In this document: positions 29,064-29,513 of the stretch, in pieces | How positions within the stretch are numbered: position 1 is the first letter of the stretch | How the letters are laid out: each line of letters starts with the position of its first letter | Source: Erysipelotrichaceae bacterium | GTDB taxonomy: Bacteria > Bacillota_I > Bacilli_A > Erysipelotrichales > Erysipelotrichaceae | DNA length: 32,000 nt | Assembly (NCBI GenBank): GCA_963676105.1 | Contig: OY781039.1 | Span: 1,320,001 to 1,352,000 of the forward strand | Reading direction: 5' to 3' | Made by a program: the position numbers and the translations under genes | Notes under the pieces: model-generated | Databases searched by the model: none | What the model was told of the DNA's origin: nothing | Seen by the model: only the letters and a program-made list of their open reading frames with translations

Positions 29064-29154
29064 TTGACCTGTCCGTTTTTTAGGCAGTCCAATCTTATTA
29101 ATCTTTTTATTGCTTACGCTAGGACATTTATCTTATGTGGTATACAATAAGTGT

Positions 29155-29231
29155 AGAGAAACACCTAGTGTGTTCCTCCAATCATGGAAAAACACTCTAC
29201 TAGTGGTGAAACTTAGAAAGAGTGTTTTTTT
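29155..29231 (+). ncRNA. Convergent small RNA of module E (candidate antitoxin); ends approximate
   Basis: CTAGGA-N18-TACAAT with an upstream TG. The transcript has gtgtagagaaacac, the perfect anti-SD CCTCCAATC, and the terminator aaacactct...agagtgttttttt. Confidence 0.5.
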
Positions 29232-29234
29232 GAT

Positions 29235-29321
29235 TTAAGACTTATTCTTATGGTTTAAGAAATTAAGGATTAGATCAATGATGTTTATGATAGGATTCAT
29301 AACTTGAATGAATAATTCCAT
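29235..29321 (-). CDS. 28-aa peptide MELFIQVMNPIINIIDLILNFLNHKNKS, diverged toxin-like paralogue (module E)
   Basis: Same length and context (gattggaggtgcatATG). The helix is interrupted by Asn/Pro and is less hydrophobic. Confidence 0.55.
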   Translation of the reverse strand: MELFIQVMNPIINIIDLILNFLNHKNKS

Positions 29322-29513
29322 ATGCACCTCCAATCTATTGATTGAAGGCAACACTCAATGGTGAGTCTCTACAAGTTATTAATACGTTTCATGTTTATTA
29401 ATTCCTAAATTGTACTGTTAATAGTTCTATTAATTTTTGTGCATTTATATCAATCTTATATACTTTTTTCGAAGACGCTAGGACATTTATCTTATGTGGT
29501 ATACAATAAGTGT

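Follow-up and report, generated by a model that had tools for sequence, protein, structure and literature searches.

How is the Shine-Dalgarno (SD) sequence of a toxin messenger RNA (mRNA) kept hidden when both the toxin leader and a convergent small RNA (sRNA) carry a box complementary to it? The question is raised by a family of small modules in a stretch of 32,000 nucleotides (nt) from an Erysipelotrichaceae bacterium (contig OY781039.1, positions 1,320,001 to 1,352,000), which was analysed at its full length and is called the window below. Each intact module has an open reading frame (ORF) for a 28-amino-acid hydrophobic peptide, a convergent predicted sRNA and a common bidirectional terminator. 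With slightly better than even confidence, we favour the reading that the modules are type I toxin-antitoxin systems built like the enterococcal par locus, in which the leader box (in cis) and the sRNA box (in trans) are alternative holders of the SD. Transcripts, their ends, toxicity and RNA-RNA binding were inferred from sequence throughout, and this counts against the reading from the outset.

A search of the window with a module profile (nhmmer) found five full-length modules, A with the toxin on the plus strand and D, E, F and G with the toxin on the minus strand. Modules E, F and G are arranged in tandem with a period of 359 nt. Besides the five intact modules there are one split copy (B, whose second part is also called C) and one decayed copy (C'). 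The copies, with the strand of the toxin, are as follows.

7343-7661, plus strand: module A, with cis box at 7416-7423, SD at 7432-7440, ORF at 7447-7533, terminator at 7542-7583 and sRNA box at 7586-7594 (minus strand)
18642-18705, plus strand: toxin promoter and leader remnant of module B, with cis box at 18681-18688 and the SD GGGGG within 18694-18701
20268-20495, plus strand: remainder of module B (C), with ORF at 20277-20363, terminator and sRNA box at 20417-20426 (minus strand)
24025-24264, minus strand: decayed module C', with an ORF cut short after MNDCI, a retained cis box and SD and a degenerate sRNA box
26702-27019, minus strand: module D, with sRNA box at 26777-26785 (plus strand), ORF at 26839-26925, SD at 26934-26942 and cis box at 26947-26955
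29103-29420, minus strand: module E
29462-29779, minus strand: module F, with sRNA box at 29534-29541 (plus strand), ORF at 29594-29680, SD at 29689-29696 and cis box at 29700-29707
29821-30137, minus strand: module G, with sRNA box at 29893-29899 (plus strand), ORF at 29952-30038, SD at 30047-30054 and cis box at 30058-30065

The span singled out in a preliminary description of this DNA, 29119-29408, is module E from the -35 element of the sRNA promoter through the -35 element of the toxin promoter. Its parts are listed below.

29121-29148, plus strand: sRNA promoter AGGACA-16 nt-TACAAT, found by promoter scan; the same promoter lies at 29480-29507 in F and at 29839-29866 in G
29153-29231, plus strand: predicted antitoxin sRNA of about 80 nt, with 5' GUAGAG, a first stem-loop (SL1), anti-SD box and terminator; ends inferred from the promoter and the T-run
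29175-29183, plus strand: anti-SD box in trans, CCTCCAATC, which matches the SD region as a perfect 9-nt complement (-16.8 kcal/mol; p=0.001 against shuffles)
29188-29231, no strand assigned: bidirectional terminator AAAAACACTCT..AGAGTGTTTTT, common to mRNA and sRNA; it holds all 43 intermolecular pairs of the predicted E dimer
29235-29321, minus strand: toxin ORF of 28 amino acids, MELFIQVMNPIINIIDLILNFLNHKNKS, recognised by hmmsearch with a six-peptide profile and by hydrophobicity
29327-29335, minus strand: SD with its 5' flank, GATTGGAGG, predicted to pair with the cis box with a probability of about 1.0
29340-29348, minus strand: anti-SD box in cis, CCTTCAATC, which forms the 5' arm of the hairpin in the leader folds
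29353-29372, minus strand: 5' end of the toxin mRNA, with GUAGAG and the predicted stem-loop ACTCA-CCAT-TGAGT; homologous to the sRNA 5' region (z=8.0)
29379-29406, minus strand: toxin promoter AGGAAT-16 nt-TATTAA, inferred by reading, below the scan threshold and weaker than the sRNA promoter

The T-run of the E sRNA ends at 29231 and the toxin stop codon occupies 29235-29237, so the predicted sRNA does not overlap the ORF. The toxin genes have GGAGG located 5 to 8 nt upstream of ATG. The sRNA promoter, AGGACA-16-TACAAT on the strand opposite the toxin, was found by promoter scan and bounds, together with the terminator, a unit of 75 to 95 nt. The toxin promoter, as read from module E (AGGAAT-16-TATTAA), has the same layout with a poorer -10 element. 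From these signals the toxin mRNA is predicted to be about 185 to 205 nt long and the sRNA about 75 to 95 nt. The terminator has the form AAAACACTCT-N20-AGAGTGTTTT; its outer stems are unvarying in all seven copies, while the inner 20 nt vary among modules. It gives the sRNA and the toxin mRNA 40 to 44 nt of perfect 3' complementarity.

We first consider the leader. The cis boxes reported for A, B, D, E, F and G were all present in the toxin leaders, and the proposal that the leader sequesters its own SD is strongly predicted. When the toxin mRNAs of D, E, F and G were folded at full length, each base of GGAGG paired with the upstream CCUYC box with a probability of 0.87 to 1.0. In A the SD was mostly paired in the full-length fold, with mixed partners. 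The SD-box helix was the sole consensus structure of the seven leaders in RNAalifold, and the energy needed to force the SD open was 6.9 to 11.9 kcal/mol across A and D to G. When the 11-nt arms of the seven copies were set in register, 88.3% of cells held standard pairs, against 39-59% in slid registers. As a structural prediction, we find the cis hairpin convincing. In toxin D, forcing the SD open let the GUAGRG-type 5' end pair with part of the anti-SD box in the mRNA.

In modules E, F and G, a GTG in the leader opens a frame of 39 amino acids (MLPS..LEV..M...; 29235-29354, 29594-29713 and 29952-30071, minus strand), which crosses the anti-SD/SD hairpin and continues in frame into the toxin ORF. 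This frame is probably meaningless. It is the only version of the gene long enough to be reported by a gene caller.

The convergent predicted sRNAs of A, B, D, E, F and G likewise carry the trans boxes ascribed to them (in A at 7588-7594 and in B at 20420-20426, minus strand), and the box of E (29175-29183) is indeed the perfect 9-nt complement of the SD region. The site of the box is constant in every copy, after the 5' stem-loop and before the terminator. In the six modules with an intact ORF, 7 to 10 bp are possible between the sRNA box and the SD region. The complementarity in trans lies above chance: 83.1% of cells were paired in register, and slid registers of the cis and trans arms gave 39-60%. 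Compared with shuffled sRNA 5' parts, the trans duplex was better at p<0.05 in A (9 bp, p=0.002), D, E and F, and no better in B (0.09), G (0.41) and the decayed copy (0.47). The decayed copy is the only module with a dead ORF and the only one that has lost the trans box.

Could the boxes be functionless chance matches in AT-rich intergenic DNA? The helices are short, and the trans duplexes of B, G and C' do not exceed shuffles, as such an origin would lead one to expect. The pairing is specific to the register (83-88% against 39-60%), however, the box occupies the same site in every copy, the leaders share a consensus helix in RNAalifold, and the full-length folds pair with probabilities close to 1. 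A chance origin is therefore highly improbable and was rejected. At the level of sequence, the trans box is a genuine conserved feature. Its function is plausible by likeness to par, thermodynamically marginal and unproven.

Do the boxes change together with the SD? The preliminary description held that both boxes covary with the SD of their own module. With 11-nt arms registered by hand in seven related copies, a sample of low power, we found few double changes. There were two such pairs in cis, each in one module: A-U/G-U/G-C at the second flank position in F, and U-A to A-U at the third flank position in G. There were three in trans, again each in one module, and one of them (columns 2/25) was unpaired in five of the seven modules. 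When SD arms were swapped among modules, the cis covariation score was reached by 28 of 500 shuffles and the trans score by 104 of 500. Neither were cognate box-SD duplexes stabler than non-cognate ones (permutation p=0.40/0.23 in trans and 0.68/0.53 in cis). Local SD-segment duplexes were used for this comparison; whole-length RNAduplex matrices were set aside because they are inflated by long loop-rich pairings. The related claim that both boxes follow the SD flank is also partly misplaced: the boxes of D and E differ (AGUC against AAUC) opposite an identical flank GAUU, and the G sRNA kept AGU while the cis arm and SD flank of G became AAA/UUU. Taken together, these results do not support covariation of the boxes with the SD of each module.

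A different pattern was found when the two ends of each module were compared. On the sRNA side, promoter and 5' region are similar to the promoter and leader of the toxin, as the preliminary description had noticed, with alignment z-scores of 8.0 in E, 6.3 in F, 5.6 in B/C and 4.3 in G; the score was 2.1 in D and -0.1 in A. The alike 5' ends pointed out in E are GTGTAGAGAAACAC (29151-29164, plus strand) and TTGTAGAGACTCAC (29361-29374, minus strand). Trans boxes resemble their own module's cis box more than the cis boxes of other modules (identity sum 58 against 48.1±3.5, p=0.0036), and the entire promoter-proximal 5' ends also show own-module likeness (p=0.029). Even loop positions that pair with nothing match at both ends: CACC/CACC in E, CACG/CACG in F and CACA/CACA in G.

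Judged by these alignments, the sRNA gene has the look of a toxin promoter and leader duplicated in inverted orientation. A single ancestral duplication would give ends of one module that are no more alike than ends across modules. The observed excess of own-end over cross-module likeness thus suggests gene conversion between inverted repeats, or repeated duplication, and we infer that the two ends are probably kept alike by gene conversion. Joint change of the cis and trans boxes would follow from this alone, and RNA pairing is not needed for it. The concordance of the boxes is therefore better explained, as far as the sequences tell, by concerted evolution of an inverted promoter-leader duplication than by covariation with the SD. 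The whole scenario, in which the sRNA gene arose by inverted duplication of the toxin promoter-leader, the sRNA is a free-standing copy of the anti-SD arm and the ends are held alike by gene conversion, is put forward tentatively, at less than even probability. If true, it would provide a concrete route for the birth of a type I antitoxin from its own toxin gene. The sRNA, with its SD-like 5' GUAGRG, stem-loop and anti-SD box, would then be a miniature leader and a competitor of the cis arm for the SD. When and how the antisense sRNA arose is a question of Fozo et al. (PMC2887945), on which the clear homology of the toxin leader to the 5' region of the sRNA bears, together with its module-specific concordance.

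Both RNAs of a module begin with the conserved GUAGRG (29151-29158, 29510-29517 and 29869-29876 on the plus strand; for example 29367-29372 on the minus strand). In folds of the sRNA, this SD-like 5' end is paired to part of the anti-SD box as GAG/CUC, as UAGAG/CUUUA in D and as GGAAGCA/UGCUCC in B. Judging from the folds, the GUAGRG end may be an anti-anti-SD element or a 5'-end protector.

How could the two masks act? The preliminary description proposed that translation is blocked twice, by leader and sRNA. The leader mask is predicted, and a copy of the anti-SD arm is indeed present in the sRNA; the joint action of the two does not stand. One SD pairs with one partner at a time, so the two masks cannot act together, and the predicted dimers of D to G keep the SD in cis; a double simultaneous lock was rejected on these grounds. 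In the par-like scheme that we favour, a weak promoter would give the mRNA for a 28-amino-acid membrane-type peptide and a stronger convergent promoter the sRNA. The CCUYC box of a new leader is predicted to fold on the SD in a hairpin of 8 to 10 bp, which would leave the free mRNA untranslatable. By analogy with par, the sRNA would then dock via the complementary terminator stem-loops. The anti-SD arm of the tethered sRNA, just 5' of the terminator, might take the SD when the leader hairpin opens, and the initiation region would be held closed in a stable complex.

This regulatory mechanism is not new and is already published as the par scheme (PMC7472228). In par of pAD1, convergent promoters flank a bidirectional terminator, the loops of which start the interaction; RNA II owes its complementarity to the initiation region, both SD and start codon, to direct repeats read in opposite directions; and a 5' stem-loop of RNA I hides the SD until RNA II binds, with an upstream helix in addition (PMC7472228, PMC4147584). 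Like par (Fst/RNA I-RNA II, including SprA1/SprA1AS of Staphylococcus aureus and Fst-Sm/srSm of Streptococcus mutans), the modules have convergent promoters and a shared bidirectional intrinsic terminator. With the transcript ends predicted here, the antisense RNA also lies outside the ORF and the box-SD complementarity outside the overlap, as in Fst/RNAII and SprA1, where the antisense RNA leaves the ORF uncovered and exerts its effect outside the overlap (PMC8594479). A single direct repeat in the DNA gives the 5' part of the sRNA its complementarity to the SD region, an arrangement that recalls the direct repeats DRa and DRb; in E, GATTGGAGG occurs twice on the toxin strand, as the SD (29327-29335) and inside the sRNA gene (29175-29183). 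Further likenesses are the intramolecular 5' stem-loop sequestering the SD (here predicted), the short hydrophobic peptide with a basic C-terminus, and a tendency to tandem arrays with sugar phosphotransferase system (PTS) genes as neighbours (PMC7472228, PMC4147584, PMC8594479, PMC2887945).

Several results weigh against the par-like reading. In full-length mRNA-sRNA dimers (RNAcofold), all 40 to 44 intermolecular pairs fell within the terminator overlap (change in free energy about -40 kcal/mol), and modules D to G kept the SD in the cis hairpin; in the dimer of A it paired inside the coding region of the mRNA itself. With the 5' parts alone, dimerisation gained only -0.5 to -6.4 kcal/mol, and the box-SD duplex was the minimum-energy form in A and E only. 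The sRNA box never displaced the cis box in the minimum-energy dimers of D, F and G. The CUC core, half of the sRNA box, is predicted to pair with the 5'-terminal GAG of the sRNA's own GUAGRG, and the free part of the box in the sRNA fold is mainly flank, for example CAAUC. The trans duplex of G (7 bp, -7.6 kcal/mol) is at chance level against shuffles, and the SD shows no module specificity in duplex energies. Unlike par, where DRa and DRb cover SD and start codon, the modules have one repeat of 9 to 11 nt that covers the SD only, and the toxin is not detectably an Fst homologue by motifs, Pfam, NCBIfam or the PDB. Given the dimer energies and the CUC/GAG self-pairing, the trans box would at best offer the SD another partner after tethering of the sRNA.

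On the same results, one might hold that only the cis hairpin and the 3' overlap regulate, by a route like that of txpA/RatA or bsrE/SR5, such as RNase III cleavage or duplex-induced decay, and that the sRNA box is a passenger, inherited with the inverted duplication, kept by gene conversion and at most the lower stem of the sRNA 5' hairpin. The retention of the SD in cis in the D to G dimers, the confinement of all intermolecular pairs to the terminator, the self-pairing of the CUC core and the chance-level duplex of G all agree with this. So do the failure to find cognate specificity or significant SD covariation, the way in which each trans box follows its own cis box (p=0.0036), also in D and E with their unchanged SD flank, and the agreement of non-pairing loop positions between the ends of E, F and G. 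A passenger box would not be expected, however, to keep its site and complementarity across subfamilies with dissimilar sRNA 5' regions. The ends of A align at z=-0.1, yet A has a 9-bp trans duplex with p=0.002; the lone module with a dead ORF has lost the box; and in par, the closest characterised layout, repression requires pairing of the 5' repeats (PMC7472228). We regard a passenger box as possible, with a probability well below even.

The lack of module specificity allows a further explanation. The SD region is nearly the same in all modules, so it is conceivable that any sRNA masks the SD of any toxin of the family and that the copies form one shared buffering network. The E sRNA pairs with the SDs of A, B, C' and D at -14.8 to -18.6 kcal/mol, non-cognate duplexes are as stable as cognate ones, and all copies have the same outer terminator stems. 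The terminators differ in their inner 20 nt, however, so that tethering by the 3' duplex would favour the cognate partner, and an untethered duplex of 7 to 10 bp would compete with an equally strong intramolecular hairpin. Moreover, RNA II of pAD1 gives no protection against the chromosomal paralogue in Enterococcus faecalis (PMC7472228). We consider such promiscuous masking improbable.

Returning to the par-like reading, the modules depart from par in other respects. The sRNA is about twice the length of RNA II (about 40 nt) and has its own 5' stem-loop. The likeness of the ends reaches over the promoter and the whole 5' region, as an inverted duplication. A second direct repeat was not found in the modules, and pairing over the start codon was limited to weak, G-U-rich contacts in E. 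An equivalent of the 5' upstream helix, joining the 5' end with a distal segment, was predicted in D only; E, F and G have a local 5' stem-loop.

The toxin itself is of the type M-N-D-F-I-Q-V-M-I-L-I-I-S-I-x-D-L-I...K-K-K-H (28 amino acids). The six 28-amino-acid ORFs have 54-82% identity to toxin A; the core hydropathy of the peptides is 2.4 to 2.8, with 1.4 in toxin E, and the C-terminus is basic. All six peptides are without P-x3-G (PXXXG) and without Trp, unlike Fst/Ldr-type toxins, with which they share only the basic tail. They gave no Pfam or NCBIfam match at E<=10 save a spurious one to DUF5385, and the six-peptide profile found no Fst, PepA1 or LdrD chain in the PDB. At the gathering threshold, Rfam matched only a SAM riboswitch in the window, and a scan of 29050-30200 at E<=10 found no antitoxin family. 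The absent toxin motifs, the lack of Pfam, NCBIfam, PDB and Rfam matches and the single repeat together leave membership of the Fst family without support, and it was rejected for the missing PXXXG and conserved Trp (PMC7472228).

As in bsrG/SR4 and txpA/RatA of Bacillus subtilis, the convergent sRNA would pair with the toxin mRNA at its 3' end. For bsrG/SR4, partial sequestration of the SD is described, which tightens on antitoxin binding (PMC3834814, PMC8309996); SR4 affects the SD indirectly by a structural change, whereas the sRNA here has a direct anti-SD box. Antisense RNAs of the TxpA/RatA and BsrG/SR4 families reach into the 3' part of the toxin ORF (PMC8594479), whereas the sRNA predicted here ends short of the stop codon, and the TxpA/BsrG type was excluded on this architecture. 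A short-range anti-SD hairpin is a recognised hallmark of type I toxin mRNAs (PMC8594479, PMC6733600). As in aapA1/IsoA1 and the descriptors of T1TAdb, an anti-SD sequence just 5' of the SD forms a stem-loop that prevents premature translation (PMC8594479, PMC6733600). The antitoxins of such systems pair by full antisense overlap of the 5' region, in contrast to the separate copy of the anti-SD arm here. Toxin E (29235-29321, minus strand) is divergent, being the least hydrophobic, with Asn-Pro in the helix and the C-terminus KNKS; despite this, module E has the only sRNA with a perfect 9-nt anti-SD box. The N-terminal pattern of the peptides, x-F/Y-x-x-L/V-M-I/V-M/L-I, may be BsrG/TxpA/BsrE-like, a likeness that serves only as a lead.

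The incomplete copies add to the picture of the family. The preliminary description treated B as one module; both of its boxes are present, and the module is no longer single, being a leader remnant cut from its ORF and sRNA gene by an insertion sequence (IS). The element, of the IS110 family and about 1.57 kb long (18707-20272; transposase at 18820-19995, minus strand), lies between the SD GGGGGTGATT and the ATG, with GTGATT at both junctions. It parts the intact ORF and sRNA gene (20268-20495) from the promoter and leader (18642-18705), and may represent natural silencing of a toxin. In the decayed copy (24025-24264) the toxin reads MNDCI*, and the promoter region adjoins the 3' end of a Sel1-repeat gene (24275-25042). 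The anti-SD box of its sRNA has degenerated to CCTTAACT, while the cis box and SD are retained. With five intact, one IS-interrupted and one decayed copy, the window offers a small natural series for module birth, silencing and loss.

The inner terminator loops (for example 7560-7566, 26802-26810, 29560-29568 and 29920-29927) differ by module. In most modules the toxin strand has kept UUUUCC and the sRNA strand GGAAAA. The sRNAs of A, D and F have YUGG, a possible U-turn (YUNR), 5' of the loop GGAAAA; those of E and G do not.

Searches for further copies gave no other member. In genome contigs, the terminator pattern AAAACACTCT-N18-22-AGAGTGTTTT matched at least 118 unrelated terminators, with a toxin in none among the matches listed, and is too generic. 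A codon pattern of SD, ATG and FIQVMIL gave one chance match in metagenome contigs. Two pattern scans of viral contigs found nothing real, and blastn and tblastn against plasmids and phages found nothing meaningful. A protein-level search with a profile of the doubled peptide had no match, and the 39-amino-acid GTG-extended ORF had one spurious match among 1.84 billion representative proteins. Exact look-ups of three window proteins found none of them, and the neighbouring GGDEF protein had no close homologue. The nearest homologues of the aldolase were 95% and 85% identical, on short Logan contigs; nhmmer found no module in contigs of relatives with aldolase homologues of 95-75% identity.

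ORFs of 87 nt are likely to be below the usual length cut-offs of gene callers, which would account for their absence from protein collections. The family seems to be restricted to a low-GC, Firmicute-like lineage (30% GC) that has been poorly sampled. In the closest relative (Logan SRR22388180, aldolase 95%), module A is missing 3' of the aldolase gene, so modules seem to turn over quickly between close relatives. The same relative has, at positions 6841-6854 of its contig, a fragment like an A/B-type toxin promoter and 5' end, GAATATGAGCTTGTAGGCAAGT, without SD or ORF.

The finding adds a lineage-restricted, unannotated family whose mechanism would be the textbook one of type I, par-like toxin-antitoxin systems. 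These 28-amino-acid toxins are invisible to gene callers, Pfam, NCBIfam and Rfam, which shows how much type I toxin-antitoxin diversity is missed.

Two other regions of the window deserve mention. An S-adenosylmethionine (SAM) riboswitch (28913-29020, minus strand; RF00162, 51.4 bits) lies 5' of two small ORFs without a Pfam match (28493-28876 and 28005-28496), which are followed by a macro-domain protein (27022-28005), unusual cargo for an S-box leader. At 316-4638 on the plus strand, three co-oriented genes look like a defence island; their products are an unknown protein (456 amino acids), an SNF2/helicase protein (660 amino acids) and a NOV_C-domain protein (328 amino acids).

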